A DNA stretch of 64,000 bases from a virus, in the IMG/VR virus record IMGVR_UViG_3300006919_000045, positions 8,515 through 72,514 of that record. One strand, written 5' to 3'. The position numbers and the translations under genes were made by a program. Under the pieces are notes generated by a model, which saw only the letters and a list, made by a program, of their open reading frames with translations, had not been told where the DNA came from and searched no databases. Numbering within the stretch: the first letter of the stretch is position 1; every line of letters begins with the position of its first letter. Below, piece after piece: positions 4,382 through 51,330 of the stretch.

Positions 4382-7300
4382 TTATACTGAATAGCCAAAA
4401 GTTCCCCCTACAAAACGCACGGCTAATGAAATACTACTGCCGCCAGCTGCATTAGTGCTAGTATGAACACTATTAGTTGTATGATGTACAATAGTCGTTT
4501 TTGCAGTTAATTCAACTGGAGACGTATGAACTCTTTTTGGCAGTCTAAAGTTTATGGGCATTACACAAACTCCAGGCCCAGAAGCTTTATAAATACCTCC
4601 TATTCTGGCTCGCATAGAGACCTGTGCTATGCTAGGAGTGCCAGATAAACTAGTGTTATAGATACTAGGCCAATTTTCCCAAATCATGTAACTAGGACTA
4701 AAAGTACCTTTAAGATTGGCTCTATTGTTTGAACTAAGACTATTATTACTATAAAAGTAGACTCGAGTACGCTCCGAACTATTACTGCCTAGAGCCCCTG
4801 TAGGATAATACTCCAAACCAACTATAGGAGAGTAGCCTCCTGTACCTCCATGTTTATAAAGTAAGCCCCCAATATTTAGTTCATCCATTTTATCTCCATT
4901 TATCTCTAAATACTTAAGCGCGGAACCAGCGAAAGGGGACACTGGAGTATTTGAAACGAAAGTATAACCATTAAAGTTTTGTCTGTACATAGTACCTGAT
5001 GCTGCTCCCGATACTGTTCCTGATTTTAAGAAAATTTCAGTATATGCACGAATAATATATTGACTACTGCTTTCTAAAACTACGTGCATATTTCCAAAAA
5101 GCGATCTCGCAACATTTGCAGAAACTCCATTCAGAGTTACACCATTATCTTTAGGGGCTGGTACGGTAAAGTGAAAAATACTAGTACTAGCTTGAGTAAA
5201 ATTACCTGCAATACCTGCTTGTTGATCTCCAAAAGAAAGCGTATAAGTTTCAGTAACATCACCCGAGAAGTTTCCAGCTCGAATTGAACCTGCGCTTATA
5301 TTTCCTCCATCAATTATTGTTTGAGTGACTCCGGAGGTACCATTTACTTCATTTGCTGTAAGTGGGTCAATAGTAACACTACCATCAGTTAATTGAGTTC
5401 CTGAGCTAAAAGTAACTACTCCAGTGAAATTAGTATGTTTAACAACAGTTGAGTAACTTACGCCTATTGAAGTAGCTCCTGAGGAACTTTCTGTTCCATA
5501 ATATCGAACAGTCCATACTGTTTCTAGTGCGGCTGCATTTGTTGTTTGAGGTGAATTTTGCCATACATTATCTAGAGGTGTTGTTCCAGTATTAATATCT
5601 GGAGGACTTACAGGAAAAGTAGCACTTACAATTCCTGTTGAAAAAGTATATGTATTACCATTAGGAGCGGATGGAGCGATGGCATGATTAGGTCCTGTTT
5701 TTCTATAGTACAGGTATCCTTGAATAGTTCTTGGGCCCGAAGCCCCTTGCTCTTGTTCCAAAATAGGTACTGTTTCGGTATCTATAACAACACTGTTTTT
5801 GATTAGCTCAAATTTAATTGAACTAGCAGAACCATAATTAGCAGACGAGGTAAGAGTCATATTACCATTACTGCTAGTGGCATGGGCGCTGGTCGCTGAA
5901 TTTAGATACGCCTTTATAATTACTTCGTTTGCAGGCAAAGGTGACTGTGTTACAGTAGTTCCTGCTGTTTTAATTGTTGAAACATTTAGAGTAGTAAAAT
6001 CAAAAGTTGCAGAACCAGTAGCGGGTATTGTCTTTTTGATTACTGAAGGAACTATATTCAAACTATATACGACTGCATCGTCTCCATCTGTTTTCACTGC
6101 ATATCGTGCCGCAGCCCCAAAAGTAACGGTTGGGGTGCCTCTAGGGGTGCCTGTAGCTAATCCTACAGCCACGTATATTTGGTCGCCATCGTTTACTAGA
6201 CTTGGAGGATCCTTGTTCCAGCTAGCGTCATTAATAGTAAGAGTACTGGTTCTAAAGTTATATGTTGATGACGTAGGAGGAGTTGGTATATTGTTTCCAG
6301 TAATAACATTAGAGTAAACATAAACTTCTGCTACTGAATCACCATCAACTCTATAGGGAGTACTCCAGACAAAATTAGTTGCTCCTGAAGCTTTTGTACC
6401 TCTCGAAGCATATAAAGGGTCTCCTTGGTCTGCAGGAGGATTATCATACCATCCAATACTATTATTAGGACTAGCAGAGTTTGCAGGTGTGCCCGGTGGA
6501 GGGTTTGCTGCAGAGAATCTACCAAATATAATGTTTACAGACTCTCCCTCGGCTCCCGACGCTCCCGCATTAATTTTAGTTATAGTAAATGTTTTAGTTA
6601 AAGTAGTGCCTAGATAGCTAGCACTAATAGTAACTGTTGCTTCTGTTAGTGCTGCGGACATGGAAGTGATCTGAAGAATTTTTGTAGTACCATTCCAGCT
6701 AAATCCTAGTCCTGAATTACTTGCCACAGGAGTAGCAAAAGTCCAATTATTTGTTACATTTGTTGCACCTTCATAAATAGCAACAGCAGTGTTTGCACCA
6801 GGAAAATTACTATTAACAACATTTCCAAATCTATCTGCTGTAACACTGTGATTTTCATTTGTTAAATCCATTCGCGGAGTACCAGGGCCATCTGGACCTA
6901 CAGCGCCGTCCTCTCGCCTAGCTACAATTACTGGAGGTGACCAAGCTGCATCTTGAGGAGAAAGACCATCTGTTGTAAAGACTCTTTCTACCATAAAGAT
7001 TACATCTAGATTTTGAGTAAGATCTTGCTGTGTTGTTGACCATCCCGAAATACCATTTGTAGGATTTGCAAATGTTTGCTGAGCAGGATTTGTAATACCT
7101 GTTATAACATTGACATTATTTAATTTTTTAAATAGTTTTACTGTTTTTTGAGTTTGTGGCTGTTGAACGGCCACCAATGTAAGTGTTTCTTCTATTTTTG
7201 TGCCACCAGCCGCACCTTCCTGAATTTCAACCTTTATGTCTTTTACACCGGTAAAGATAGTTGATGGCACAGTTATATTAAAAGTTTTTTGAGAACCACT

Positions 7301-10300
7301 TGCAGGGGCAGTAAACGAGGGTTCTGCTGCCCCGTCAAATGTAAACTTAAACCTTGGATCTAAAAAGTTAAAAGCTGTTGCAGTATATGTAAAAGTACTT
7401 CCAGACAACAGATCCCCTGCAGCATCATAGTTTGCTGTTTGAGGCCCAAAAAAGTCTACACTATAAGATCTATTATCTAGAGCGGTAGCACTAACTCCAG
7501 GTTCATTTCTTCCGGGATGAAAACCTGAAAATTGTTTTACTCCGGCTGCTCCCTTATTAGAAGGCAGCCTATATCGAATCCAGTAATAATATGTAAGATC
7601 AGGATCAAGATTTGCATCATCCGTCGTAGTATTTACAGAAGATGTTTTATGTGCTTTTTCTACATCATTTTCTGTGCCAAAAGTAGGAAAAGAAGTACTA
7701 AAACTAGAATTACTACTTCTCCAAACTTCTACTATGTGAGTTTCTTGACTAAAGTTAACTACATTATTCCAATTGAGACGTATTCCATCAGTAGTTCCTA
7801 CTGCAGTAAGTCCAGTTGGGGTAATAGGGTTAACCACGGGGAATCCTGGACCTTCTGGATAAATAGATTCTACTAGATCAGAAGGAAGAGCTTCAAGTAC
7901 ATAGGCATCGTCATTATGTTCAATAACTGTAAAATCTACTAATAAGTCGTCTCTGGGGCTCATTGATTGTATGCGAAAGAGTTTACTTGCCCAGTTGAAT
8001 CTTTCGTAAGTAATAGCTATAATATTACCCGGAAGCAGCACATAAGTTTCGGGAGAGCCGGTAAAAGTAGCAGTAAGGCCAGAACGAGATTCATCAAGCA
8101 TTTGCTTGATGTTCATTCGATTGTTAAAGTAATTTGTAATTCCTGGGGCTTTATACTGCCCTTGACGAGAAATTCCTTTATCTTGTTTTTTGTAGTCTGA
8201 ATTATAGTATGTTATATTTTTAGAGTTAAATCCATTTTGTGGATCAATATAGCCAGTAGTAACAGAATTATATGTTTTACTGAGTCCCTTATCAGTTATT
8301 TTTATATCACCAATAATTCTATCCGTAGTTATTTGTTCAAGAGAACTAATAGTAGTGGGCGCTTTAGTTTTTAAATCTAGCTCGTATTTTCCATTGGAAT
8401 ATCGAAGAATTCCATTAAATTGGGTAAGCATCTGATTTACATTATCAAAGAGAGGAGCACTCGTATCAAGAGTTTGATTCAGTTGATGGCGCGTAGCGTG
8501 TCGCTGAGTTCTTTCTTCCCAGCCTAAATATTTCCAGTATCTTACGTCACAAGAATCATACAAATCATAGCCAGAAGCAATTCTACCATCCCCAACCAAT
8601 TTTTTGACAATAGGATTTCCCGTACCTCCTGAGTGCACCTCAGTATCTAGATGCAGTTCCGTATCGCTATTTGTATTTGATGCGCCACTTACTTTTGTAA
8701 GATAAACCACCCCTCCTGTGGCACCTCCGCCCGTATATCCAGCACTTATGGTAGCTTGAGGTAGCGGAGTGGTTGGCTGTGATATGGTTTTAGGATAAGG
8801 ATCGTTGATGGTTCCGGGATCTACAATAAGGGCTTTTCCCTCTACTGTCCATACAATCTCTCCCCGGTGATACTTAGTGTAACTATACCACTTTCTTCCA
8901 AGTTTTCCAATTACATCTTTAAAAGTATACTGTTTATAACTTCTAGTTACTGTAGTTGTCGTATTTGTAGTTGGATTGTACTCTGCAACATCATATTGTA
9001 TTGTATCGGATATTTCTTCAAGAGTACCTCTAAAAAATACTTTACTACTTGTTTCAGGGAATCTATACTCGTATACATCTCCCACACTTATATGTGTAGG
9101 AGGTCGTATATGAGAACCAAGAACTGTTACGCGAGACTGCTGATCGCATGCTCGTGCAGTTTCTCGAAAAGACTCAATATTTAAAAGATCATCGGAGAGT
9201 CCTTTACCATATGTAGTGCTTCTTAAGTAGTCTAATAACTGTAACGCAGGGTTAATTGAAACTCTACGATCAGACTTATTGGGAACACCACTGCCTTCAT
9301 AACTTTTTCCTCCATAGGAATATTTTGAGGATCCTCCATGGTCTGTAGTATTTAAATGTTCCGTAAGTACTAATAAGTTAGCATTTCTAAGTGCAATATT
9401 AAGGTTTGTGCCACTTACTGCAGTTTCAGTATCACTGGGGTATGCAAGCCCTACTGTTTTATCTTCGACATTGTCTTTCTTAAAGGTAATAGTAGTTCCA
9501 TCTAGTGTATCTGCATGGGTAGTATCTATATCTGGAGCTGTTGAGTCTTGAACCAGAACTTGAAAAAACTGTAAAGTTGCAGTAACATTGGATGAATGTA
9601 TTTTTGTATCTACATTTTCTTGCTGAACGGGGTTTGCAGGGTCAGTATTATCGATTTGCCCCGCTCCTGGAGCATCTGTATTTACAGCATCAAATAGTTC
9701 GTCTAGTTGAGTATTAAACCCATTAAGTATTATTTTATCAGTGCTTACGTCATAAGCAGCGGCAAGTCCTGGCCAGCCACTCACAGTTGTAAAAGGACTT
9801 ACTTTTACAGTTGTTCCGTCTTGCAAAACTCCATTTACAACGGTACCACCTTTATGCTCTCGCTTTATCTGTAAGTCAATTGCTTGTGCAGCAGATGGCG
9901 TACCTTTTATTGCTTTTATAAGATTTCTTGCTAATGCGGGGGCAGCAGCTATATTTAGTGAAGGATCTCCAGAAAAATCGATTTCATATACGTATGAGTC
10001 ACCTGTTGGAAGAGAGTTCCCCACTGCAGCAAAATCAGCTTGTGTAAGCGGATTGCCGCTCCCCAAAGAGGCGGTGATTGCCGCTGCTTGAGCCGCCGTT
10101 ATCCCGTCTTTAAAAAGCGTAACTAAAGCTTCTGGAACATTTGTACCAAAAACATTTACCATGGCGCCCGTATCAATTCCAAATTCATTTGAAAACAGAG
10201 TATGGTCTATCTGTTTTCCACGAGTAACTGTTCGTTTTATAGAAATAGGAAAAGGTGCAAGAGGGTTGGGATCTTGCTGATGAATATATCCTTCACTAGT

Positions 10301-12970
10301 ATATTCGACATTTGAAACATTAATGTCGCTTCCTCCGCCAAAAGTTTCCGAAGTACAGGTAAAGAAGTGTTGATTGGGATTATTTGCGTGTCTAACTTTA
10401 AATCTTTTTATTCCATCATTAATAAGTTGCTCATCTAAAAATGTTTGCTCTAATAAATGAGTTCCTGAAGTTATGGTTGTTGCAGCTATTGGTAAAATTA
10501 CTGCAGGAGATGCTAGTGCTTTTTCTTTTGTTTCTGCGAGATGAATTTGATTTACACCAATGCCTAATCCTGGCGACTGACCCGCTGCTACAACAAAATA
10601 TTCTTTACCATTTATTAACGGACTAATTGGACTGTTATCAGTATTTATGTATGTAACCTTATCTCCTGTTTCTAATCCTAAGGCACCCATTCCTCCTGTC
10701 ATAATTAAGGAGCTTGCGCCTCGAGCCTCGCTTATAGTTAGATTATCTACCTTAAATCGAAACCTATAATCATACTCTGCATCCATGTCCACAAAGAACC
10801 ACTTATCAATAATAGTGGATCTATACTGTAATCCCGGTCTATAATGGGGCTCAATATCTACCTTGTCAGCTAAATCAAAGTTATCAAAATGCTGGGCACT
10901 ATTAGGATCGTCTACCAGATTATTTCTGTAAGTTCCATCATAATTAAAACAATTTACAAATTTTCCTTTTACAACATAACTTATATCAGGAAGTTGTGCA
11001 TCTGTGTCGCTAACTTTATCTTCAAGTACTACATAGGCAGTATCCAGCAATCTATGAGACTGTCCCCAGTATGTTCCCGGATCTAGCCCCAGTTTTATAT
11101 ATTGTTGTTGCCCTAAAAACAGAGGAGATCCGCTACCTTCTCCGGCAGCCTTATTCATTAAAATTTTATTTGCTTCTTGGTCATCTTTTCCGGAATGAAA
11201 CGTTAATTTCAAATTTTTAGCTTGGGGCAAAGGTCCTAAGCTTTTTTCATGTAAAACTCCTCTTTGATCTTGTTTTTGTGAGAAATACCCCCCTATTTGA
11301 TTTCCACTCGAATCAAACACAGCTGGGTCCGCTGGATTTATTGTACTTCCATCAGGTAAAACCATTGTGACCTGTATACCCAGACCTGAGGGATCTGCTC
11401 CACCACTTATTATAAAAGTACCGTACTGTGTATGCGATATTTGGCCTGCCGCTTGTGAAGAAATTATATTAAAAAAGTCCCCTCCTGCTACATCTCCTTT
11501 TTCCATCGAACCGAAACAAGCAACTCCTTTTACATTGTCATCGTTTGAAACCGTCCCAGGATCGTCCATTCTCCGTACACTTCTATCTGCTTCATCTTTA
11601 CAAACTAGGCTTTCATCATCTACAAATACATCAAATAATCCTGAAATAGGTCCTTCACATAGAACATTTGCAGAATACATAGTTGTAAATCCACCGTCAA
11701 ATTGAGCTGTACTTGAACCCGTCTGGTTTGGAGTAACATCGGGAGTAATTATTATATCTGCGAATGCAGGAAAAGAGTCAATTTTTTGTACCCCATAGAC
11801 AACGGGAATATGCTTCGCTTCTAGGTTAAGTCTTAAATCAAGTTGTCTTTCAACTTCAAAATATTCTGTTGAGTATTTTCTACCCCCCATCATACCTGCA
11901 AGGCCGCCTCTTCTACGAGATTTCAATCTAGAGTCAGTACCTGTGTATTTTGCTAAAACATTTAGTGATTTATCAGCATGCTCGAATCCAAAATCACTAG
12001 CATATTGAGGTTTTAAAGCTGTATTTTCTAAAGAGTATCCTGCTGAGTCTAATCCTCTATGAAATTCATCCGAAGTTAATCGTCCTTGTACTCTTACAAA
12101 GTCCCCCCAATGGCTAGTTAAAGACCAAGTAATCGTAGGCTGTCCTGAAATTTTTTCATTGAGAGTACCTTGAGCAATAACCCCTTTAAAATAAAGAAAA
12201 GGACTCCCAATTATAACTCCAGTATCGGGATGTGCAAAAACTCTATAAATTTCTACGCTTCTATTCACATAGCTTTCATAGCTTAAAGAGCCTATGTTTT
12301 TTGCGGTAAGAGTAGTTACTTCCGGATTAACATAATCTATGTTACATTCCAGTGGAGTAGTAAATGCTACAATTCCTTCTTTTTCTAAACTTGTAACATG
12401 AATTGATTTTCCATCATTGCTAATTCTATCAATTTGGACTGTAAGTACAGTTGGTGCTGCTCCCGTAAAATTTGTATTTTTAGGGAATGCAAGTGGATTT
12501 CCGATAAAATCTAGACTTGTTCGAGTTAGGCTTATAGTATCTCCTACATAAAAGCCTGCCGAAAAAAGATCAAAGTCTAAAGTAAGTAATCCTGCAGCGC
12601 CATTTCCATTTCCGTTAGCTGCGGGCAAAGTACTAGGAATATTTGTCGCTATTTCAGCTTGTGCAACAGCAGTTGCTCCTAGTTTAACGGCAGAAAGAGT
12701 TAAGCTCATTTTAGTGGCTCTTGCTTCTATTGCCTCTTGCACTTTTCCTATTTTTACAATTCCGCCTGCCTTATAACCATTGGTAGAGCCATCTCCATCT
12801 TCATCAAAGTCTACATCATAAGGAGCATCCGTAAGATAAGTAAAATCAGTCCTTCGAGTAGCTTTTTGCAGACTTGAAGGTTTTTCAAATTTTACCAAAT
12901 GATAGGTTAAAAGAGGCACTCGATTCTGTAGCGCCGTTATAATATCATCATGTATATTTCGTAATGCCAT
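4382..12970 (-). CDS. Baseplate hub/tail tip protein fused to central fibre (T5 pb3/pb4-like), 2862 aa
   Basis: Directly after Dit; IPVVYG, NPALQLLDYL and tip-attachment-like motifs, FN3-like segment (LNWNN...YYYWIRY), variable C-terminal fibre region. Confidence 0.8.
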   Translation of the reverse strand: MALRNIHDDIITALQNRVPLLTYHLVKFEKPSSLQKATRRTDFTYLTDAPYDVDFDEDGDGSTNGYKAGGIVKIGKVQEAIEARATKMSLTLSAVKLGATAVAQAEIATNIPSTLPAANGNGNGAAGLLTLDFDLFSAGFYVGDTISLTRTSLDFIGNPLAFPKNTNFTGAAPTVLTVQIDRISNDGKSIHVTSLEKEGIVAFTTPLECNIDYVNPEVTTLTAKNIGSLSYESYVNRSVEIYRVFAHPDTGVIIGSPFLYFKGVIAQGTLNEKISGQPTITWSLTSHWGDFVRVQGRLTSDEFHRGLDSAGYSLENTALKPQYASDFGFEHADKSLNVLAKYTGTDSRLKSRRRGGLAGMMGGRKYSTEYFEVERQLDLRLNLEAKHIPVVYGVQKIDSFPAFADIIITPDVTPNQTGSSTAQFDGGFTTMYSANVLCEGPISGLFDVFVDDESLVCKDEADRSVRRMDDPGTVSNDDNVKGVACFGSMEKGDVAGGDFFNIISSQAAGQISHTQYGTFIISGGADPSGLGIQVTMVLPDGSTINPADPAVFDSSGNQIGGYFSQKQDQRGVLHEKSLGPLPQAKNLKLTFHSGKDDQEANKILMNKAAGEGSGSPLFLGQQQYIKLGLDPGTYWGQSHRLLDTAYVVLEDKVSDTDAQLPDISYVVKGKFVNCFNYDGTYRNNLVDDPNSAQHFDNFDLADKVDIEPHYRPGLQYRSTIIDKWFFVDMDAEYDYRFRFKVDNLTISEARGASSLIMTGGMGALGLETGDKVTYINTDNSPISPLINGKEYFVVAAGQSPGLGIGVNQIHLAETKEKALASPAVILPIAATTITSGTHLLEQTFLDEQLINDGIKRFKVRHANNPNQHFFTCTSETFGGGSDINVSNVEYTSEGYIHQQDPNPLAPFPISIKRTVTRGKQIDHTLFSNEFGIDTGAMVNVFGTNVPEALVTLFKDGITAAQAAAITASLGSGNPLTQADFAAVGNSLPTGDSYVYEIDFSGDPSLNIAAAPALARNLIKAIKGTPSAAQAIDLQIKREHKGGTVVNGVLQDGTTVKVSPFTTVSGWPGLAAAYDVSTDKIILNGFNTQLDELFDAVNTDAPGAGQIDNTDPANPVQQENVDTKIHSSNVTATLQFFQVLVQDSTAPDIDTTHADTLDGTTITFKKDNVEDKTVGLAYPSDTETAVSGTNLNIALRNANLLVLTEHLNTTDHGGSSKYSYGGKSYEGSGVPNKSDRRVSINPALQLLDYLRSTTYGKGLSDDLLNIESFRETARACDQQSRVTVLGSHIRPPTHISVGDVYEYRFPETSSKVFFRGTLEEISDTIQYDVAEYNPTTNTTTTVTRSYKQYTFKDVIGKLGRKWYSYTKYHRGEIVWTVEGKALIVDPGTINDPYPKTISQPTTPLPQATISAGYTGGGATGGVVYLTKVSGASNTNSDTELHLDTEVHSGGTGNPIVKKLVGDGRIASGYDLYDSCDVRYWKYLGWEERTQRHATRHQLNQTLDTSAPLFDNVNQMLTQFNGILRYSNGKYELDLKTKAPTTISSLEQITTDRIIGDIKITDKGLSKTYNSVTTGYIDPQNGFNSKNITYYNSDYKKQDKGISRQGQYKAPGITNYFNNRMNIKQMLDESRSGLTATFTGSPETYVLLPGNIIAITYERFNWASKLFRIQSMSPRDDLLVDFTVIEHNDDAYVLEALPSDLVESIYPEGPGFPVVNPITPTGLTAVGTTDGIRLNWNNVVNFSQETHIVEVWRSSNSSFSTSFPTFGTENDVEKAHKTSSVNTTTDDANLDPDLTYYYWIRYRLPSNKGAAGVKQFSGFHPGRNEPGVSATALDNRSYSVDFFGPQTANYDAAGDLLSGSTFTYTATAFNFLDPRFKFTFDGAAEPSFTAPASGSQKTFNITVPSTIFTGVKDIKVEIQEGAAGGTKIEETLTLVAVQQPQTQKTVKLFKKLNNVNVITGITNPAQQTFANPTNGISGWSTTQQDLTQNLDVIFMVERVFTTDGLSPQDAAWSPPVIVARREDGAVGPDGPGTPRMDLTNENHSVTADRFGNVVNSNFPGANTAVAIYEGATNVTNNWTFATPVASNSGLGFSWNGTTKILQITSMSAALTEATVTISASYLGTTLTKTFTITKINAGASGAEGESVNIIFGRFSAANPPPGTPANSASPNNSIGWYDNPPADQGDPLYASRGTKASGATNFVWSTPYRVDGDSVAEVYVYSNVITGNNIPTPPTSSTYNFRTSTLTINDASWNKDPPSLVNDGDQIYVAVGLATGTPRGTPTVTFGAAARYAVKTDGDDAVVYSLNIVPSVIKKTIPATGSATFDFTTLNVSTIKTAGTTVTQSPLPANEVIIKAYLNSATSAHATSSNGNMTLTSSANYGSASSIKFELIKNSVVIDTETVPILEQEQGASGPRTIQGYLYYRKTGPNHAIAPSAPNGNTYTFSTGIVSATFPVSPPDINTGTTPLDNVWQNSPQTTNAAALETVWTVRYYGTESSSGATSIGVSYSTVVKHTNFTGVVTFSSGTQLTDGSVTIDPLTANEVNGTSGVTQTIIDGGNISAGSIRAGNFSGDVTETYTLSFGDQQAGIAGNFTQASTSIFHFTVPAPKDNGVTLNGVSANVARSLFGNMHVVLESSSQYIIRAYTEIFLKSGTVSGAASGTMYRQNFNGYTFVSNTPVSPFAGSALKYLEINGDKMDELNIGGLLYKHGGTGGYSPIVGLEYYPTGALGSNSSERTRVYFYSNNSLSSNNRANLKGTFSPSYMIWENWPSIYNTSLSGTPSIAQVSMRARIGGIYKASGPGVCVMPINFRLPKRVHTSPVELTAKTTIVHHTTNSVHTSTNAAGGSSISLAVRFVGGTFGYSV

Positions 12971-26000: not shown

Positions 26001-28010
26001 TTAAGCCTGGAATACTACTTTAACACAAGGCTGATCAGTACCAGAGGCAGCGAACATCTCGTGGAAACCAAGTGACTGAGTAGCAACGATCAGCTGACGC
26101 TGTCGAGCAATCTCATAGTCCTGCTCTACGGTTACACCGCGGAGGCGAGGAATCACATAGTTAGCAACATTCACAGCATATGCAACACTGTTACCAGCAG
26201 ATTCTGCTTCTACATGGTCTGTAAGAACTACGGGCGAGCCGTATACAGCACCAATGCTACCAGTGATCTTGGTTGCAATATTTGAACCAACATCAGTGAT
26301 GTCTGCAAAACCTGGATCTGCAATCAGATCGTAGTAACGGTTCATGCCTACGACGTAGACTACGTCTGCAGGGTCGAGACCATACTTACCCATTGAGCGA
26401 CGAGCGCCAAGAAGCAGACCTGAAGACAGGGTAGCTGAGTCAATGTCGTTACCTGTGGCACCGAGAGTAGCGCCGTCAAGGTCAAGCTCACCATAGTTAG
26501 AAGCTTGAGCTGCACCTTCCAAGCCAGTAATGGCAGGAGAAGATTCTCCAAGTACGACCATCTTATCTACTGCTTTTGCGTGAGCACGTGCAACACCTTC
26601 GGTCAACATAGGAAGAAGATTTACGAGAACTTCTTCGTCAATGTGGTTGTCCATGAAAGTGGTTGAAATTAATCGATGTGCTTGCATTACTGCTTGTGTA
26701 ACAGCATATGTACCTGCAGTACCACCGGCAGCAGAAAGACCTGTACCAGCACCTGAGTTAGCAGTACCACCTACACCCAGCTCACTCTCACCGCCCGTGT
26801 GGAAAACAGCAGTGCTAGTATCTTTTTGCAGGGGTAGAACCATAGATTGAGAGTTCATTTGAATCTCGCGGAAAAGTTGAGCTACTTTATACTGGAACTG
26901 TACTTCTTTCTCGATCTGCGTTGAAACAGTCAAGGAAAGCAAGTTATCCGTAGCGCCTGTAATAGCACCCGTGGGGTAGCTAATACCTGCTTTTTGGAAT
27001 ACATTTCGAGCATAGTTAGTATCAAAACCTTTTTGCGTATAAACACCCAGCATGTGAGCATACATGAGGTCTTTTGCATAAGCGTCAACATTTCCTGAAT
27101 CACGATCAGAGAATACACGCTTAGACTCACGCATTGCATCAAGCTCTTCTTGCTTCTCTTTAAGGACTTCGGCGTGCTCTGCTACAATCTTATTCAGATC
27201 AGCATCCTTCTCTTGCATCTTGGCTTCCATATCAGACATGAGGCGATCAGCACCGGATTCAACACCGACTTTGATTGCTGCCTGTACTTCTTCTTCCTGC
27301 TGAGCTTTAGCTTCAGCGGCTTTAGCCATTTTTTGTTGTTCTTGAGCTACAGCTTGCTCAGCTGCGGCTTTTTCTTCGGCCTGACGAATTGCAATCTTAG
27401 CAGCAGTCTCTTCCGCTACCTTCTTAGCAAAAGCATCTAGGTCGATTTCGGGAGTTTTAGTTTCTTCCGACATTTCTTTCTCCATTGAAGAGGAATCTTC
27501 CTCGCTTTTAAAAGTTTTCTTGAAGTCCTCATAATCCTGCTCAGAATCGAAAGACTTCGCCAGAGAGAATGTAGCTGCTTGATTACAAGGTACCGATACC
27601 ACTGATACCTCAAACAACTCAGCATCCTTTATTTTTAATCCGTCGGTTTCTTCAAGGTAATCAGCATCCTTGACTTTGAAACCGACAGAAAACGCTCCAA
27701 GGATACCTTCTTTAACAAGTTGAGCAACAGAATCAGGAGCTGATTTTGAAATTTTTGCTTTCATTTCTAGTCCATTTTCTGTAACTTTTAACCCAGTGGC
27801 TCGGCCAATGGGTTTGTTATAATCATGATTGAACAAAATAATTGGATTTTTCTCAAAATTACTTAGTCCGCCTTTTGTCCAGGCTTCGGGTACAATTGTA
27901 TCTCCTGCCCGATCAAAGTCTTTTGTACTAGCCATTCCAGTAATGGTGACGCATCCGTCATCATCCTCGAGAGCTTTGAACGTAGAAGTTAGGTTAAAAA
28001 TCTTATTCAT
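26001..28010 (-). CDS. Fused HK97-type prohead protease + scaffold domain + major capsid protein
   Basis: Protease motifs (LFNHDYNKPIG, AFSVGF, EVSVVSVPCN), then coiled coil, then HK97-fold capsid; internal RBS and ATG at 27473. Confidence 0.9.
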   Translation of the reverse strand: MNKIFNLTSTFKALEDDDGCVTITGMASTKDFDRAGDTIVPEAWTKGGLSNFEKNPIILFNHDYNKPIGRATGLKVTENGLEMKAKISKSAPDSVAQLVKEGILGAFSVGFKVKDADYLEETDGLKIKDAELFEVSVVSVPCNQAATFSLAKSFDSEQDYEDFKKTFKSEEDSSSMEKEMSEETKTPEIDLDAFAKKVAEETAAKIAIRQAEEKAAAEQAVAQEQQKMAKAAEAKAQQEEEVQAAIKVGVESGADRLMSDMEAKMQEKDADLNKIVAEHAEVLKEKQEELDAMRESKRVFSDRDSGNVDAYAKDLMYAHMLGVYTQKGFDTNYARNVFQKAGISYPTGAITGATDNLLSLTVSTQIEKEVQFQYKVAQLFREIQMNSQSMVLPLQKDTSTAVFHTGGESELGVGGTANSGAGTGLSAAGGTAGTYAVTQAVMQAHRLISTTFMDNHIDEEVLVNLLPMLTEGVARAHAKAVDKMVVLGESSPAITGLEGAAQASNYGELDLDGATLGATGNDIDSATLSSGLLLGARRSMGKYGLDPADVVYVVGMNRYYDLIADPGFADITDVGSNIATKITGSIGAVYGSPVVLTDHVEAESAGNSVAYAVNVANYVIPRLRGVTVEQDYEIARQRQLIVATQSLGFHEMFAASGTDQPCVKVVFQA

Positions 28011-38679: not shown

Positions 38680-38741
38680 CACCAAAACAACTTTTCTCAA
38701 TTTTTCCAAAGTTGTACGTGTGGGGGTGCGTGGCGCGGCTA

Positions 38742-38760
38742 GATGAGAATGAGTCTCATT
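38742..38760. promoter_or_regulatory. Fur-box-like palindrome
   Basis: GATGAGAATGAGTCTCATT; 13/14 match to the TGAGAAT-N-ATTCTCA form. Confidence 0.55.
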
Positions 38761-38935
38761 ACCGCCCCACTCCTGGCGGATCGCAAGCACAATCCCGGCC
38801 CGGGGTCAAGCATTTTTTCAAATTTTTTTTGTGACATATTCACACAAAAAAAGCTGTACGGTGGGGCGCGAATGGTGTTATACTCTCAGCATGAGATGGG
38901 GGATTGGCTTCCATCACTTACTACCAAGGTGACTT

Positions 38936-39235: not shown

Positions 39236-39429
39236 TCGCCGTTATCGGATGGCTCGGTGCGCTCTGCATGGCGGGCGCTCCTTTCATCATCGACACCGAC
39301 GCGGGTAAGATCCTCGCAATTGCTGGCCTGTTGATGTTGACTCAACAGGCGGCAGATGGTAAACTCTGGAATCTGGTTTGCTTAAACATTGCGGGAATTA
39401 TTGGATACTCTTATGCACTTTATTTTTGA
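39232..39429 (+). CDS. Small membrane protein
   Basis: Three short hydrophobic segments; ATGA overlap. Confidence 0.55.
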   Translation: MIAVIGWLGALCMAGAPFIIDTDAGKILAIAGLLMLTQQAADGKLWNLVCLNIAGIIGYSYALYF

Positions 39430-39892
39430 TCTTGACCATACCGTCATCGATTCCTCACACCGACAGATCACGCGGGCGGATGGCTCGCTTGACCTAGCGG
39501 CTTGGATTGAGAACAACACCCGCGAGAATATCATGGGTGACTCACTGCTACCGCTCGCCAGACAATGGCGACTAGCAGATAAGAAAGGCGCGACTATTGT
39601 TATCTGCACTGCCCGCGTTATGGGCGCGCATGATTTCGATTTTCTCGCATCGCATGGCCTACGGTGGGACGCTTGCCTCTCTCGCCCGATGGGAAACACA
39701 CTAGCGGACGCGGAACTTAAGGAAACTCTGCTACGCAAATATGCCACGGCTCGGCCTATGTCATGGGCGCGATTCTGCTCTACATCAATCTTTTTTGATG
39801 ATAACGAATCGGTGCTCTCAATGCTTGACGGGCTCGGCATCAGGGCTTATAATTCTATTTCTTTCAATCAATCGCTAAGGAAAACAGCATGA
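39413..39892 (+). CDS. HAD-superfamily phosphatase
   Basis: FDLDHT, CTAR, K and FFDDN motifs. Confidence 0.8.
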   Translation: MHFIFDLDHTVIDSSHRQITRADGSLDLAAWIENNTRENIMGDSLLPLARQWRLADKKGATIVICTARVMGAHDFDFLASHGLRWDACLSRPMGNTLADAELKETLLRKYATARPMSWARFCSTSIFFDDNESVLSMLDGLGIRAYNSISFNQSLRKTA

Positions 39893-40476
39893 TTCGTTTA
39901 CGCAAAATCGCCACCATTGACACTCAGGTAATGAAGCCTAGAGACTATCAGGAAAACGGCGACCCACAATCAGGCATGGGCTATAACTATCTTTATGAGA
40001 TTGTCGGCCTTGACAAATACAACGCGGCATTCGCTGGCGTTCGCATGACTAAGGATGGCTATGCCAAGGAATTTTATTCCACTGGTCACAATGGCCTTTT
40101 CTCTCGCGTTCGCACTACACTGCGAGAATTTGAGCGCGTTTTTTGCGACGGTGAATTTGGCGCTCTGGAGGCTATCGTCTACGGCAACATCTGCAAGGGT
40201 GCAAATCGCTCACTCGCTCAGGAGCAATACATTCACAAACGCAATCAACACGGCGAAGAATGGATGCTTCCGACCATCGAAGCGGCTACGCCTCGCGGTC
40301 AGAAGCGACCTTCCGGCTCGACTGAATTTTACAACTGGTCACCGAAACGCGCTTATGGCAAATACCTTCAGAGCATGACGCGCAAAGCGATTGGCGAAGG
40401 GTGGCAGGATATTATCGACCACAATTTTCGCGGCCAATCTGGGTGGGCGCTTCCGACTGTCGGGCGGGAACTGTGA
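39889..40476 (+). CDS. Hypothetical protein, possible GIY-YIG/T5orf172-like nuclease
   Basis: YNYLYEI, conserved-looking R, EQYIH and STEFY are reminiscent only. Confidence 0.35.
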   Translation: MIRLRKIATIDTQVMKPRDYQENGDPQSGMGYNYLYEIVGLDKYNAAFAGVRMTKDGYAKEFYSTGHNGLFSRVRTTLREFERVFCDGEFGALEAIVYGNICKGANRSLAQEQYIHKRNQHGEEWMLPTIEAATPRGQKRPSGSTEFYNWSPKRAYGKYLQSMTRKAIGEGWQDIIDHNFRGQSGWALPTVGREL

Positions 40477-40579
40477 GAGCGGGGGCGCTGATAGCTGGCG
40501 CATACCTTGTTTATTCCGTCGTCACTGATCTGGCGATCTGGGGCGGCGCGGTTTACTATTATTTCAATGGGGGCTTTTG

Positions 40580-41179
40580 ATGAAAGCACTACAAGCGAAA
40601 CTCAACCGGCTCGCGGAGAATCTCTCCGCTCCGGTGGCGGTAATTTTAGAGGGGCGTGATACTGCTGGCAAATCCTCGACTATTCGGGAATTGACTCACT
40701 ACCTACCGCCCGACCTTTACAGCGTTTGCCTATCGCACAAACCTAGCAAACGCGCAATGGCGGCATGGCTACCCTACTGGGAAACCAAACTACCAACGCA
40801 ACCGCGCATCGTGTTTTTTGATCGAAGCTGGTACAGCCGCGCGATGGTTCAACATCTCAACGGATGGTGTACGCCGCGACAATACAACAATTTTATGCGG
40901 CGTCATAAAAACTGGGAAGCTAATCAGCCGGTGCGCTTGATTAAATTTTGGCTTTCGATTTCGGAACAGGAACAGCAACGCCGAATAATTCAACGCAAGC
41001 ATTCACCGCTCACCTACTGGAAATTTTCGGAGAATGATGAAAACGCACTTTCGCATTATGACCGCATGAGCATTTTAAAAGAGCGCGTTATTGATTCGGA
41101 ATGGCACACAATTAATTTCGAAAATAAATCAAAAGGAATTAAAAAATTGCTTGACAAATTATGCGGCGAGCTGGCATAA
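40580..41179 (+). CDS. ppk2: Polyphosphate kinase 2 family protein
   Basis: EGRDTAGKSSTI (Walker A), FDRSWYSR, IKFWLSIS...Q..R, WK.S..D motifs. Confidence 0.9.
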   Translation: MKALQAKLNRLAENLSAPVAVILEGRDTAGKSSTIRELTHYLPPDLYSVCLSHKPSKRAMAAWLPYWETKLPTQPRIVFFDRSWYSRAMVQHLNGWCTPRQYNNFMRRHKNWEANQPVRLIKFWLSISEQEQQRRIIQRKHSPLTYWKFSENDENALSHYDRMSILKERVIDSEWHTINFENKSKGIKKLLDKLCGELA

Positions 41180-41180
41180 T
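41151..41180 (+). promoter_or_regulatory. sigma70 promoter
   Basis: TTGACA-18-CATAAT with upstream A tract. Confidence 0.55.
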
Positions 41181-41226
41181 GTTTTTATTGACTAGGGGAT
41201 TGGCCCCAGGAAAAGGAGAAAGAAAA

Positions 41227-41394
41227 ATGTCACACTACGTAAACGAAGCCAACGCCGAAGCCTGCTACGAAGAAGCCTGCGAAGCGGGTTACGCTTTTTT
41301 CCCCGAAGCCGACTGGGACGGTCAAGCGTTCGAGGCTTGGGTAAACTGGAAAACGGACGAGCTTCTTTCTGAGCTTCCCGACGGGTACCGTTAA
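41227..41394 (+). CDS. Small acidic protein
   Basis: AGGAG RBS; MSHYVNEANAEACYEEACEAG... Confidence 0.65.
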   Translation: MSHYVNEANAEACYEEACEAGYAFFPEADWDGQAFEAWVNWKTDELLSELPDGYR

Positions 41395-41410
41395 TGTTCC
41401 ATGTGGAACA
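41395..41410. other. parS-like centromere palindrome
   Basis: TGTTCCATGTGGAACA, one mismatch from TGTTCCACGTGGAACA. Confidence 0.65.
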
Positions 41411-41419
41411 CCTCGCCCA

Positions 41420-42043
41420 ACTCCTTGATTTATCAAGGATTTTGGCGCGCTCGCGCCAGTAGTAGTGCGACAGCGAAGTTGCTTAAAGGTGCAAATTAAG
41501 TTGAACAAAAACAGGTACTTAACAGTTAGTCTTTGAAAATTGGCGCGGGGGCGCCAGTAGTAGTGCAACGGTAGTTCAAATGTGGTGTTGCTTGCGCCAT
41601 TATAAGTAGTAGTGCAACAAAAGTCAAGTCTTTTTTGCGGGTGTGGTGCAAATTATTTACAATTGTACCAGTCTTCGTGCCAGACCCCGTGCCCACCCTG
41701 GTAGTATACGCGCAAAACGTGGCAATGTCAAGGATTATTTGCAGCAAGTCCCGGGATAATCTTTTAAAAGCGCGGCGCCGATTATACAGTAGTAGACCGG
41801 CAGTTGTCAAGTACTTTTTGCACAATTGGTGCAAATAAATCGCTTGACAAGTCTCTGCGGGGTAGCATATAATGGCAAATTGTGGCAAACCTGGGGCAAA
41901 CAGTGGCAAATTTACGAAAATTTTGGCAGATTAGGTGCAAAAAACACTTGACAGCCGAAATTTCGTACGCCGCCCCCCGGAATTCGCTTGCGTTGGGGTT
42001 ACGACAAAAAAGATTTGACATTGGGAACCGGAGGTAGTATAAT
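41420..42043. repeat. Injection-stop-like non-coding region with repeats, palindromes and divergent promoters
   Basis: Repeated GCGCC..AGTAGTAG, four GGTGCAAA, phased GGCAAA, palindrome TCCTTGAT-TT-ATCAAGGA, three leftward and two rightward sigma70 promoters. Confidence 0.65.
42015..42043 (+). promoter_or_regulatory. sigma70 early promoter
   Basis: TTGACA-17-TATAAT. Confidence 0.85.
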
Positions 42044-42067
42044 ATTTATCAAATCGGAGGAAACTGC

Positions 42068-47745: not shown

Positions 47746-48162
47746 ATGACTAAGCAATTAGCTATGGCTGACCTACATAAAATTTTATTAGGTTTTGACC
47801 GTTTCATGGAACCAAATACATTCGCTCCAACCTTAGATGGCGGATACCCTCGATACAATGTGCTAAAAGTCGGAGACAACGGTTTCCGAGTAGAGTTAGC
47901 AGTTCCGGGCTGGAACAAAAATGACATTGAAATTGCTTTACACAAAGGCGTACTTACTGTTATTGGTAATGTAAAGCAAACCGAGGCGGAAAATGAATCC
48001 TATGTCTATAAGGGCCTAAGCGGTAAGTGTTTCACACGGACGTTCGGAGTAAGTGAGCACGTTAAAATTGATCGTGCTTATATGGAACGTGGCCTGCTAT
48101 GCATTGACTTGCATGAAGAAATTCCTAAGGAATTGCAACCAATTAAGGTTACTATTTCATAA
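47746..48162 (+). CDS. Small heat-shock protein (Hsp20/IbpA-like)
   Basis: YPRYNV, ELAVPG, YVYKGLS...FTRTF, GLLCIDL, I.I tail. Confidence 0.9.
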   Translation: MTKQLAMADLHKILLGFDRFMEPNTFAPTLDGGYPRYNVLKVGDNGFRVELAVPGWNKNDIEIALHKGVLTVIGNVKQTEAENESYVYKGLSGKCFTRTFGVSEHVKIDRAYMERGLLCIDLHEEIPKELQPIKVTIS

Positions 48163-48267
48163 GGAAAATTATGTTTATATCACGAACTGATTGTTGCGGC
48201 GAGTGTCTACTTTGTATGTGGACACTATCAATTATAACACTAGCGCTAGCACCACTCTTCTAATCTT

Positions 48268-48290
48268 CGCGGGGTTTCGGCCCCGCACTT
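48268..48290 (+). terminator. Probable terminator hairpin
   Basis: GCGGGG-TTTCGG-CCCCGC, weak T tail. Confidence 0.5.
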
Positions 48291-48305
48291 ACTTCAGGAA
48301 ACACT

Positions 48306-48815
48306 ATGACACTTACAGGAACATATTACAATCCAGATACTCATCCGGATCAAAAGTATTTCTTAACTGAAAAATCAGAAGAAGAACTAACCCAAATTCA
48401 GCCAGAGCTTGCAGAAGTAGTAAGACGAGCTGTGGCTATCTCAGACATTGAAATGCAAGTACTGCACGGTAGACGAAGTTTAAAACAGCAAGATGAGTTT
48501 TTCAAAAAGGGTGCTACTGAAGGAATCACTTCTCCTCATCTATATGGATATGCTGTTGACCTAGTTGCAATAGTAGAGGGCCGTATGTGTTTTGAAACAG
48601 AGGTATATGATGAAGTAGCAAACTGCATGAAGTATGCAGGACAAGATTTAAATACTCCCATACGGTGGGGAGGAGCTTGGCATTGCCCAAATCTATGTAA
48701 CTTTACTGGACTTTTAGATGAACTACAAATGAGCTACATCGACATTTGTCGAGAGAGGGACGTTCGTCCCCGGTTAGATGTTAATCACTTTGAGCTTACA
48801 ATATCAACAGAATGA
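48306..48815 (+). CDS. M15-family (L-Ala-D-Glu) peptidase endolysin-like protein
   Basis: GRRS..QQ, SPHLYGYAVD, RWGGAW, D..HFEL. Confidence 0.8.
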   Translation: MTLTGTYYNPDTHPDQKYFLTEKSEEELTQIQPELAEVVRRAVAISDIEMQVLHGRRSLKQQDEFFKKGATEGITSPHLYGYAVDLVAIVEGRMCFETEVYDEVANCMKYAGQDLNTPIRWGGAWHCPNLCNFTGLLDELQMSYIDICRERDVRPRLDVNHFELTISTE

Positions 48816-49137
48816 ACTTTCCCACAGAACAAGTAATAGTTTCTTTAGTACTAGTGCTAGTTTTAGTATCTATGGTTACTTGTAGCCCTCAAGAAAGAAA
48901 GTGTGACGTTATTCATGAGAGTGCGTCTCCTCTTCAAAAATGCGAGGTATGGTAATGGAATTAATAGGAATATTGTGTATAATGATGCTTCCAATGATAG
49001 CAGGAGGTTTTACTTTCGTAGTATCACAAAAAGCTGTAGAGGGTAAGTTTTGACACAGCAGGACACAGTATTTATATTATTTTTTATGCTGGCAACTTTA
49101 AGTATAGTAGTAGGAATGTGGTACGGAGATAAAACGG

Positions 49138-49311
49138 ATGAATCATCTAAAAGAAACAGGTAAAGGATACTTTGAACATTTGTCAGGCGCCTGGAAATTA
49201 GCATTTGTATTGCTAGTACACGGGCTTCTACCAAATGTATGGAGAAACAAAGTCAGCGACGAACTGCACAAAGATCAAAAGAAGCTGCATGGAGTACGAG
49301 TCGTTGACTAA
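49138..49311 (+). CDS. Small protein, DUF6356-like
   Basis: MNHLKETGKGYFEHL...LLVHGLLP read from sequence; GGAG RBS. Confidence 0.55.
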   Translation: MNHLKETGKGYFEHLSGAWKLAFVLLVHGLLPNVWRNKVSDELHKDQKKLHGVRVVD

Positions 49312-49876
49312 TTATTTTGCAAAGTCGATGACAAAGTTTTTTCGTTTCTTTGCAGATACATTCTTTGCAAAGAGATACGGACACCGAGCAGTCGTACTTG
49401 AAACAGTTGCAGGAGTCCCAGGTATGGTCGCAGGAATGCTTGTACACCTCAAGAGCTTGAGAACACACAAGCGAGGCTATGGCCCCATCATACGAAAATT
49501 ACTTGCAGAAGCAGAAAATGAACGTATGCATCTTATGTTTTTTATCGAAATTGCACAGCCAAATAAGCTGGAGCGGGGTCTCATAATTACCGCACAATTT
49601 ATATTCTGGCACTTTTATTTAGTACTGTACCTAATCTCTCCTCGTACTGCCCATATGATGACGCATTATTTTGAAGAGGAAGCAGTCAAAAGTTATACAG
49701 AATACTTAGATTTAATTTATAGAGAGGAGATAGAAGATGTTCCTGCTCCTCAGTTAGCAATCGAATACTATGGTATGGACGCAGATGCACGACTTTCTAC
49801 GATGGTAAAACACATTCGTGCTGATGAACAAAATCACAGCAAAGTAAACTTGGAGTATGCAAATGTACTCAGATAA
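49289..49876 (+). CDS. aox: Alternative (ubiquinol) oxidase
   Basis: Di-iron motifs LETVAGVPGM, EAENERMHL, FEEEAVKSYT, IRADEQNH; exact start uncertain. Confidence 0.92.
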   Translation: MEYESLTNYFAKSMTKFFRFFADTFFAKRYGHRAVVLETVAGVPGMVAGMLVHLKSLRTHKRGYGPIIRKLLAEAENERMHLMFFIEIAQPNKLERGLIITAQFIFWHFYLVLYLISPRTAHMMTHYFEEEAVKSYTEYLDLIYREEIEDVPAPQLAIEYYGMDADARLSTMVKHIRADEQNHSKVNLEYANVLR

Positions 49877-50264
49877 GGTATTGGATCACTATGAAAATCC
49901 CAGAAATGTCGGAAAACTTAACGAGAATGATAAAGATGTCGGAACAGGCATGGTCGGGGCTCCAGCGTGTGGAGACGTCATGCGGCTTCAAATCCGAGTA
50001 TCGCCCGACGGAATTATTGAAGATGCTAAATTCAAAACTTACGGATGCGGCAGTGCTATTGCTTCTTCATCATTACTCACAGAATGGGTTCGAGGAAAGT
50101 CCCTTGACGAAGCGGGAAAAATCAGCAATGTCCAAATTGCTCAAGACTTATCGCTCCCGCCTGTAAAGATACACTGTAGTGTACTTGCGGAAGATGCTAT
50201 CAAAGCAGCCATCACGGATTATAGGACTAAACATGAAAGGAACTACCATGAAAAACAGAACTAA
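49863..50264 (+). CDS. iscU: Fe-S cluster scaffold IscU
   Basis: YSDKVLDHYENPRNVG, GAPACGDVM, FKTYGCGSAIAS, LPPVKIHC. Confidence 0.95.
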   Translation: MYSDKVLDHYENPRNVGKLNENDKDVGTGMVGAPACGDVMRLQIRVSPDGIIEDAKFKTYGCGSAIASSSLLTEWVRGKSLDEAGKISNVQIAQDLSLPPVKIHCSVLAEDAIKAAITDYRTKHERNYHEKQN

Positions 50265-50973
50265 ACTCAGCGCTCTTGCACTGTCCACCGCTCTCGCCTG
50301 TGCGTTCGTACCGACCGCTCATGCAGGGGAATGGTCCGCAAATGCTTCGATGACCAGTAATTACATCTGGCGAGGGCTTACCCAGACAGAGAATGAGGCG
50401 GCTGTGCAGGGCGGAATTGATTATGCCTCGGACAGCGGCTTTTATATTGGCACCTGGGCTTCCAATGTGAACTATGGCCCCTCCGATGTTTACTCTTACG
50501 AGCACGACGTATACGCAGGGTTTGCTTTTGATACCGGCGCGGTTAACTGGGACGTTGGTTACCTCTATTACAACTACGACAAAGAAGCTAACTTTGACTT
50601 TGGCGAGGTTTATGTGGGCGCGGGTATTGGTGATTTCAGTGCAAAGCTTAACGTGCTGGCCAATACTGAAGCAGACGAGGCTGAGGGACAGGATTTTGGG
50701 TTCGGCGAGGCGTATTACCTCTCACTGGACTATGGTTTTGAAGTCGGCGACGGTGTGGGTATTGGCCTGCACGTAGGACATCACGATGGTGATTTTGCTG
50801 AAGCTTTTAACGGTAACGCCGAAGGTTATTACGATTATAACGTAACGGTCTCAAAGGGCGGCTTTACTTTTATGATTTCGGATACTGATGTAAAAGGTGG
50901 AGCTGCAGAGGGTGGATACGATAACGATCAGATCAAATTTGTCGTCTCATACGCTGTTGATATCGCGCTCTAA
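50248..50973 (+). CDS. TorF-family putative porin (gcw_chp-like)
   Basis: Signal peptide; SNYIWRGLTQT...AVQGGIDY...GFYIGTWASNV...DVYAG. Confidence 0.8.
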   Translation: MKNRTKLSALALSTALACAFVPTAHAGEWSANASMTSNYIWRGLTQTENEAAVQGGIDYASDSGFYIGTWASNVNYGPSDVYSYEHDVYAGFAFDTGAVNWDVGYLYYNYDKEANFDFGEVYVGAGIGDFSAKLNVLANTEADEAEGQDFGFGEAYYLSLDYGFEVGDGVGIGLHVGHHDGDFAEAFNGNAEGYYDYNVTVSKGGFTFMISDTDVKGGAAEGGYDNDQIKFVVSYAVDIAL

Positions 50974-50976
50974 GTC

Positions 50977-51330
50977 ATGAATGAGTATTATATCGAGCCT
51001 TATGATTCAATGCTACAAGTAACTCATAATGCCGCAAATTGGATGCACGAACAACTTTCTAAAAGAGGAAAGGGTAGAGGTATACGATTAGGAGTTGCAC
51101 CTGCGGGATGTACGGGATATAAATATATAGTCGAATTTGTAGATCAAGAGAACGAAGAAGATTATATAGTACAAAAGAAAGGATTACTTTTCTTTATAGA
51201 TCCTAAAAGCAGGCCCGTACTACAAGGTTCTGTAGTAGAGTTTAAAACTGAAGGTATGAACTCTGGAATAGAGATTATAAATCCCAATACACAAGATAAG
51301 TGTGGATGTGGTGAGAGCTTTAATATATAA
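50977..51330 (+). CDS. iscA: A-type Fe-S carrier (IscA/HesB family)
   Basis: IRLGV..AGCTGYKY and NPN....CGCGESF. Confidence 0.9.
   Translation: MNEYYIEPYDSMLQVTHNAANWMHEQLSKRGKGRGIRLGVAPAGCTGYKYIVEFVDQENEEDYIVQKKGLLFFIDPKSRPVLQGSVVEFKTEGMNSGIEIINPNTQDKCGCGESFNI

Follow-up and report, generated by a model that had tools for sequence, protein, structure and literature searches.

A conserved chromosomal-type parS sequence behind the early operon of an uncultured T5-like phage

The DNA analysed here, called the window, is a stretch of 64,000 nucleotides that corresponds to bases 8515–72514 of a linear virus record of 72,514 bases with an estimated completeness of 70%. Positions 1–38601 are occupied by minus-strand genes for T5-type virion parts, namely the distal tail protein pb9, the baseplate tube p140, the tail completion protein p143, a tail terminator, the tape measure, the portal, and the terminase. 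From about 38.7 kb onwards, plus-strand genes follow, including a split NAD-dependent ligase, a DnaB-type helicase, a primase, and a DNA polymerase. The source phage is an uncultured marine relative of T5, a T5-like siphovirus. Its capsid region shares only 31–34% identity with cultured Demerecviridae. A Pfam scan of 81 open reading frames of the window found neither an integrase nor a partition family, in agreement with an earlier note on this DNA, according to which no parA or parB gene is present here.

Two large minus-strand reading frames were observed in the virion part. One of them (26001–28010, 669 amino acids) matches the prohead protease (Peptidase_S78, residues 29–151) and major head protein families and aligns to two adjacent genes of cultured T5-like phages, which suggests an apparent protease–capsid fusion. 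The other (4382–12970, 2862 amino acids) lies behind the tape measure and pb9-like genes, has a weak match to Phage-tail_3 (residues 1509–1660) as its sole match, and probably encodes a giant tail-tip or fibre protein. On the other side of the genome, host-like metabolic genes lie at 47746–51330 (HSP20, alternative oxidase, an outer-membrane-type protein of the Gcw_chp family, and an Fe-S assembly protein). A further gene of this kind, for polyphosphate kinase 2 (PPK2), belongs to the early operon and shares it with a homologue of the T5 protein Dmp.

The features at the end of this operon and in the region behind it are as follows.

39389–39892, plus strand: HAD-type homologue of Dmp, the pre-early deoxynucleoside-5'-monophosphatase of T5 (tblastn, 39% identity over 85 amino acids, E 1e-10)
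40577–41179, plus strand: PPK2 gene (Pfam PF03976, E 5e-39)
41227–41394, plus strand: last small open reading frame of the early operon, 55 amino acids from an ATG behind AGGAGA, no family match, stop codon abutting parS
41395–41410, no strand assigned: host-type parS variant TGTTCCATGTGGAACA (C8 to T), with consensus parS at the same place in relatives
41395–42067, no strand assigned: main non-coding, repeat-rich control region (673 bp) from the dmp–PPK2 operon to the rightward early genes
41422–41443, plus strand: inverted repeat CCTTGAT/ATCAAGG with a T-run, probable intrinsic terminator of the dmp–PPK2 operon (-8.0 kcal/mol)
41440–41460, no strand assigned: conserved GC palindrome TTTTGGCGC-N4-GCGCCAGT, coupled to parS
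41542–41555, no strand assigned: GC palindrome repeated as GGCGCGGGGGCGCC (second copy)
41627–41599, 41731–41703, and 41810–41781, minus strand: three sigma-70-type promoter-like sites facing parS (11, 11, and 12 of 12 hexamer matches)
41844–41873 and 42015–42043, plus strand: two promoter-like sites leading into the rightward early genes (12 of 12 hexamer matches each)

The reading frame at 39389–39892 also gives weak PNKP-phosphatase matches, and the Dmp homologue is located 1.2–1.9 kb upstream of parS in all four near-complete relatives. Only some relatives have the 55-amino-acid reading frame; in those without it, parS directly follows PPK2. The stretch from 40476 to 41393 is hypervariable between strains. 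Contigs of other strains skip either PPK2 (40476 to 41141) or the 55-amino-acid reading frame (41253 to 41393), and the ends of many viral contigs fall to the left or right of this stretch. With the 2 kb flanking parS, a megablast search against cultured phages gave no match, and a tblastn search with PPK2 returned 13 records of cultured phages, none of which is named as T5-like (Demerecviridae).

The inverted repeat at 41422–41443 was not listed by a simple terminator scan. A hairpin within 4 nt of a T-run is found in 46 of 67 distinct spacers of relatives, with differing stem sequences. If the repeat is read as a terminator, parS would sit in the 3' untranslated end of the operon. The GC palindrome begins 29 bp past parS in the window, and its core GGCGC-N4-GCGCC, lying within TTTTGGCGC...GCGCCAGT, occurs 42–94 nt after the start of parS in all 32 assessable loci. 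An interpretation as a sigma-54 promoter was dropped, as the GG-N10-GC spacing was off by one when inspected by eye. The T5 nick-site motif, GCGC, was also considered for this palindrome; no nick-site consensus is given in the BF23 paper.

On the minus strand, AATTTTC comes directly after the second GC palindrome, which might serve as the end of a short RNA starting from the promoter-like site at 41627–41599. All three minus-strand promoter-like sites face the 3' end of the plus-strand operon, so that antisense or short RNAs are possible. These promoter-like sites, like the two on the plus strand, are consensus matches only. No Rfam family was found between 38400 and 43200.

The 16-mer itself follows a TAA stop codon (41392–41394, with CGT as the preceding bases) without any gap, and CCTCGCCC comes next. 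This confirms the earlier note, which had placed a sequence one mismatch away from parS immediately after a stop codon at 41395–41410. Fifteen of the 16 bases of TGTTCCATGTGGAACA agree with TGTTCCACGTGGAACA, and the sole difference is a T for C at position 8. The site has the form of a chromosomal-type parS, that is, a 16-bp palindrome fitting TGTTNCACGTGAAACA or TGTTCCACGTGGAACA. The central CG dinucleotide, which is reported as a feature of parS (PMC5450999), is replaced by TG at positions 8–9 of the window copy. One arm, GTTCCAC, is intact on the minus strand at 41403–41409, and the window shows no enrichment of this ParB half site.

Matches were also counted over the whole genome, as the earlier note had proposed. 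TGTTCCATGTGGAACA is the single match in the window at up to three mismatches and the single match in the 72,514-base record at up to one mismatch. At up to three mismatches, 12 of 100 shuffled windows contain a match as well. The expected number of matches at up to one mismatch is, by arithmetic, about 7e-4 per window, which is not negligible over very many windows. The window alone is weak evidence for a parS site, and the comparative evidence is decisive.

Relatives were collected with PPK2 as an anchor, yielding 45 viral contigs with 59–97% protein identity, and parS was called at up to one mismatch to TGTTYCACGTGRAACA. By this measure, 32 of the 45 contigs carry parS at -5 to +691 nt from the end of the PPK2 gene. 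In one further contig (L026), it lies 4 kb upstream of PPK2, and 12 have no parS in the fetched DNA, three of these having less than 100 nt of downstream DNA. In the alignment of the PPK2 loci, the 16-mer is constant, while the flanking sequence varies freely between lineages. A second search of viral contigs, by the GC palindrome, gave 100 stretches, and in 83 of them parS lies no more than 300 nt upstream, at a median distance of 59 nt; the two samples overlap in contigs and are not independent. Positional conservation in related phages, which the earlier note had suggested to examine, is thus found with both anchors, and recurrence at this specific position excludes a chance match.

Among the 100 GC-palindrome stretches, none has parS at two to five mismatches, and the other 17 have only sequences with six or more. 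The lack of half-decayed copies indicates that parS is either intact or gone. About five of these 17 look like chance matches to the GC pattern, and about 12 are family members without parS. Clean loss was seen in L012 and L021, and parS is also lost in relatives that retain the rest of the region. With roughly twelve genuine members of the family having lost it, parS is dispensable in some lineages. Where it is kept in the records examined in full, the copy number is constant, with exactly one parS in each of five records (that of the window and four that are 91–100% complete), and a reversed-pattern control had no match in the same five.

When viral contigs were scanned for the bare parS consensus, at least 126 stretches matched; those listed all lacked the GC palindrome and yield no usable background rate. 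The parS pattern was also absent from all ten cultured Demerecviridae inspected (five from Vibrio and five enterobacterial, including T5). Vibrio possesses ParABS, and the idea that T5-like phages of ParABS hosts generally carry parS is contradicted by the five Vibrio phages.

The changes that the site tolerates were counted over 68 distinct combinations of site and context. Positions 2–4, 6, 7, 10, 11, and 13–15 are invariant in 68/68 contexts, whereas position 1 varies in seven and position 16 in three. Position 5 is C in 52 contexts and T in 16, and position 12 is G in 42 and A in 26, the asymmetric C..A form included. At the centre, C8 is changed to T in three contexts and G9 to A in another three, and CG is kept in 62/68. 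The 16 single departures all fall on four of the 14 fixed pattern positions, for which the probability would be about 2e-9 if they were independent, which they are not.

These numbers can be compared with published binding data. For canonical parS, ParB binding is reported to be kept only with changes at the distal pair 1/16 and a transition at the pair 5/12, and symmetrical changes outside these pairs to abolish it; the same source gives TGTTCCACGTGGAACA as the parS of Pseudomonas species (PMC5450999). The natural variation at 1/16 and 5/12 agrees with this tolerance, and the clade adds the central transitions (6/68). Several variants (T1 to G or C, and C5 together with A12) break the pairing of the palindrome while ten positions stay fixed, whereas real hairpins nearby change their sequence and yet keep pairing. 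The pattern looks like that expected from ParB tolerance, unlike that of a hairpin.

As to the protein that might read the site, no ParB_N domain and no AAA_31 domain was found in any of the five phage records. For CbiA, the five records gave one sub-threshold P-loop match of 14.5 bits, in a relative. The search for parB in the rest of the genome, proposed by the earlier note, extends its statement on the window to the whole record and to four relatives. With ParB missing from the phage, the ParB of its host, presumably a gammaproteobacterium, is the likely reader.

The probable host family is Halieaceae (OM60/NOR5 group), to which one strongly matching gene points. This bacterial-type gene of the Gcw_chp family (window positions 50179–50973) is 77–93% identical to genes on contigs of Halieaceae/Luminiphilus metagenome-assembled genomes, three of which are 178–185 kb long. 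The identity is 67–74% to isolates (Luminiphilus syltensis, Congregibacter, HTCC2080, and NOR5-3) and 55–60% to Alteromonas. The alternative oxidase (AOX) is unspecific and points to marine Gammaproteobacteria in general.

All eight Halieaceae genomes inspected have exactly two parS sites, 621–633 bp apart. The sequence is TGTTCCACGTGGAACA in Luminiphilus-type genomes and TGTTCCACGTGAAACA in Congregibacter, and the central change is absent from all 16 chromosomal sites. Each of the eight genomes has one ParB_N gene, located about 12 kb from parS in the seven in which both are on the same contig. The inferred host thus combines one ParB_N gene with two parS of the same 16-mer family. In the family of genome G011, which is the probable host family, the exact site was found in 41/41 genomes (two copies in 37, one in four, and never more). 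The consensus 16-mer of the phage clade has the same sequence as the parS of the probable host family.

Given the conserved position, the absence of a phage ParB, and the parS of Halieaceae, the proposal of the earlier note that a chromosomal-type parS is present here and that host ParB is its likely reader has gained support. It appears quite likely to us that the 16-mer is the single conserved copy of host chromosomal parS in this phage lineage and that its reader is most likely host ParB. It is regarded as a real host-type parS on a virulent-type phage, maintained by selection. A ParB dimer would recognise the phage parS, close into a CTP clamp, and spread onto the adjacent phage DNA, as it does at the chromosome. 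Spreading would tie the phage genome to host ParB, ParA, and SMC for positioning or retention, by analogy to phi29 and Spo0J, and an effect of ParB on the closely packed promoters beside parS is possible as well. What the sequences show are the site, its place, its conservation and tolerated changes, the lack of partition genes in the phage, and its agreement with parS of the probable hosts, whereas binding, spreading, and a benefit to the phage are inferred.

A precedent for such borrowing comes from virulent Bacillus phages. Phage phi29 is reported to have five parS sites, and host Spo0J to help segregate its genome into the prespore; for the parS of phi29 and Nf and their use of host Spo0J (ParB), Meijer et al. 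2005 is cited there (PMC2731898). The marine phage resembles phi29 and Nf in that it is of virulent type, has no ParB of its own, and carries the chromosomal parS of its probable host, in their case with the host segregation protein being exploited. The two cases differ in number and arrangement, as five sites in phi29 stand against one per genome at a fixed landmark in the marine clade. They also differ in purpose, since phi29 uses its sites for trapping the genome in the forespore, and the probable hosts here are Gram-negative, so the benefit must be a different one. To our knowledge, Halieaceae do not sporulate. In addition, phi29 is another type of phage, with a small genome replicated by protein priming, unlike a T5-like siphovirus.

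There is also a likeness to the chromosomal ParB–parS system of Pseudomonas and relatives, with which the phage shares the 16-mer consensus TGTTCCACGTGGAACA and the tolerated positions 1/16 and 5/12 as reported there (PMC4368675, PMC5450999, PMC5961200). It differs from this system in that the window site is on a phage, away from an origin-proximal parAB operon, and has a central TG. Phages and plasmids with a ParB of their own offer another comparison, as there, too, a clamp of the ParB family reads a palindrome on a mobile genome. The phages P1 and N15 are of this type and encode ParB together with cognate sites. The marine clade differs from them in having no ParB_N or ParA gene in the five records, in using the consensus of the host, and in carrying one site instead of a lattice.

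Cultured phages with such a site were sampled by a blastn search with a 91-nt query containing the variant, followed by scans of the whole records, and this sample is biased towards the variant. The following phages were found.

phiPMW (Pseudomonas): three sites, all of the TG variant
JSF39 (Vibrio): two sites, both of the TG variant
Ep020 (Pseudomonas): five sites within 6.6 kb
PE09 (Pseudomonas): one site
PN09 (Pseudomonas): two sites, one at each end of the record

Coordinates of sites in these cultured phages are 15422, 20515, and 20735 in NC_041880, 34811 and 40308 in PV834959, and 67559–74142 in OQ603351. ParB_N was found in none of the five records, and phiPMW, JSF39, PE09, and Ep020 gave no match to a T5-type tail terminator, for which reason they are not counted as T5-like here. 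From carriers lacking this tail protein, it seems that parS borrowing arose in separate phage lineages. The paper on phiPMW mentions neither parS nor ParB. The palindromes CACGTG and ACGT are lost in the TG variant, which might owe its occurrence to restriction avoidance.

Even if parS is functional in the clade, the window copy itself may be a weakened or dead relic in which the change of C8 to T has impaired or abolished ParB loading, so that no more than half-site binding without spreading is left. This we consider possible, though clearly on the less probable side. The closest relatives (L003–L005, 97% PPK2 identity and near-identical flanks) have CACG where the window has T8, from which it follows that T8 is a recent, private change of CpG to TpG. 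The absence of this change from the 16 chromosomal sites of Halieaceae and the reported loss of binding upon symmetrical changes outside the pairs 1/16 and 5/12 (PMC5450999) point in the same direction. ParB of P. aeruginosa is described to bind arms like the intact one in vivo without long-range spreading, and ParB at half sites to spread little (PMC5961200).

Against a relic speaks that a central transition recurs in six of 68 distinct contexts of the clade, and that the published binding test used symmetrical double changes, whereas the window copy has a single one. Moreover, the TG variant is the sole form in phiPMW (3/3 sites) and JSF39 (2/2), where it looks selected instead of decayed, with the reservation that the variant was in the query and biased the sample. 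Without its central CG, the window copy may be a weakened ParB site.

A second alternative, which is regarded as unlikely, gives the site a role in DNA entry. In this case, parS would be the counterpart of the T5 injection stop signal, and host ParB, loading onto the DNA that enters first, would halt or anchor the remaining genome or set the timing of its transfer. The earlier note, from which this idea comes, suggested that ParB and SMC may also assist injection, position the genome, or titrate host segregation. The layout is T5-like, as parS opens the 673-bp untranslated, repeat-rich region directly after the early operon with its dmp homologue. In the T5 record (NC_005859), annotation of the injection stop signal starts at 9140, directly behind the last pre-early coding sequence (end given as 9157) and within the left terminal repeat. 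According to the proposal of a preprint, eight DnaA boxes in this region of T5 hold the DNA via host DnaA and so stop injection (10.1101/866236). The likeness to T5 lies in an untranslated region rich in repeats and palindromes right after an early block with pre-early-type functions, and in putative sites for a host protein of chromosome maintenance. This protein would be ParB here and DnaA in T5, and no cluster of DnaA boxes is seen here (10 TTWTNCACA in 64 kb versus 7.8 expected, one of them in the control region).

Other observations argue against this role. A search of the five records (G000–G004) gave no homologue of A1, although distant homologues could escape, and a tblastn search of the window's own record for A2 and other proteins of the T5 terminal repeat gave nothing beyond Dmp. 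The DnaA model of T5 is itself a proposal only, and some relatives have lost parS and retain the rest of the region. The assembly reveals no genome ends either. The examined records, which are assembled contigs, have no end repeats, related contigs start at differing points of a shared gene order, and their ends do not pile up at one base but break at many places on both sides.

Contigs from four of 24 public sequencing runs contain many strain variants at the locus. In one run, contig depth is higher over 38.7–42.0 kb, which is unreadable as a repeat. Contigs from RNA libraries cover parts of the stretch, without demonstrating transcription.

The description of the site in the earlier note as the end of a first-injected, pre-early segment therefore stands in part. 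The dmp homologue upstream and the T5-like layout fit it, whereas an A1 homologue and a DnaA-box cluster are missing, and calling this DNA first-injected is an analogy to T5. An extended form of the idea appears doubtful to the same degree. In it, host ParB clamps would replace the DnaA boxes of T5 and anchor or time both genome entry and early transcription, and replicating phage copies would draw ParB off the host origin and thereby knock out segregation of the host chromosome. The last step is conceivable because the probable hosts own only two parS sites.

It is rather improbable that the palindrome merely resembles parS and is read by a DNA-binding protein of the phage, such as an early regulator, in which no ParB_N domain can be recognised. 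Many small early reading frames have no family match, and the adjoining GC palindrome certainly requires some reader. This explanation would leave aside that the phage site is the 16-mer of the putative host family itself, the C/G variant included, and that the allowed variation fits the measured ParB tolerance. For the same 16-mer family in unrelated Pseudomonas and Vibrio phages that have no T5-type tail terminator, a shared host factor is simpler. By far the least probable is a mere RNA or DNA hairpin (a terminator or stability element at the operon end) or a chance match: parS can form a hairpin (stem of 6 bp, loop of 4 nt) and directly follows a stop codon, but no U-run follows it (CCTCGCCC is there), the terminator scan lists nothing, the distinct downstream hairpin with its T-run fits a terminator better, and this hairpin and the pairing-breaking variants contradict the fallback of the earlier note that the palindrome may be just an RNA hairpin.

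Coming back to a host parS read by host ParB, loading of this protein would mean that abundant uncultured T5-like phages of marine and freshwater habitats use the bacterial segregation machinery although none of its genes are their own. The one documented case to date of such borrowing is phi29 in sporulating Bacillus. In the literature searched, no T5-like or marine lytic phage is described as naturally carrying a host-type parS, and the variant 16-mer was not found there. With two parS sites on each chromosome of the probable hosts, the single site on every phage copy might matter to both sides. What is at stake for the phage might be positioning, retention while its host grows slowly, or promoter control, and for the host the titration of its ParB. 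The site also gives a handle on the non-coding region at the position of the T5-like injection stop, and the Pseudomonas phages carrying parS are possible models.

A further palindrome, AAATGAGAAnnATTCTCATTT, was noticed at the start of the dmp–PPK2 operon (38741–38761, three mismatches), and none of 100 shuffles reaches two matches. It resembles a Fur box. An exact copy occurs in 21 of 447 fetched loci (L010, L011, L013, L041, L198, and others), in several of them directly beside parS. This hints that the region may collect sites for several host proteins.
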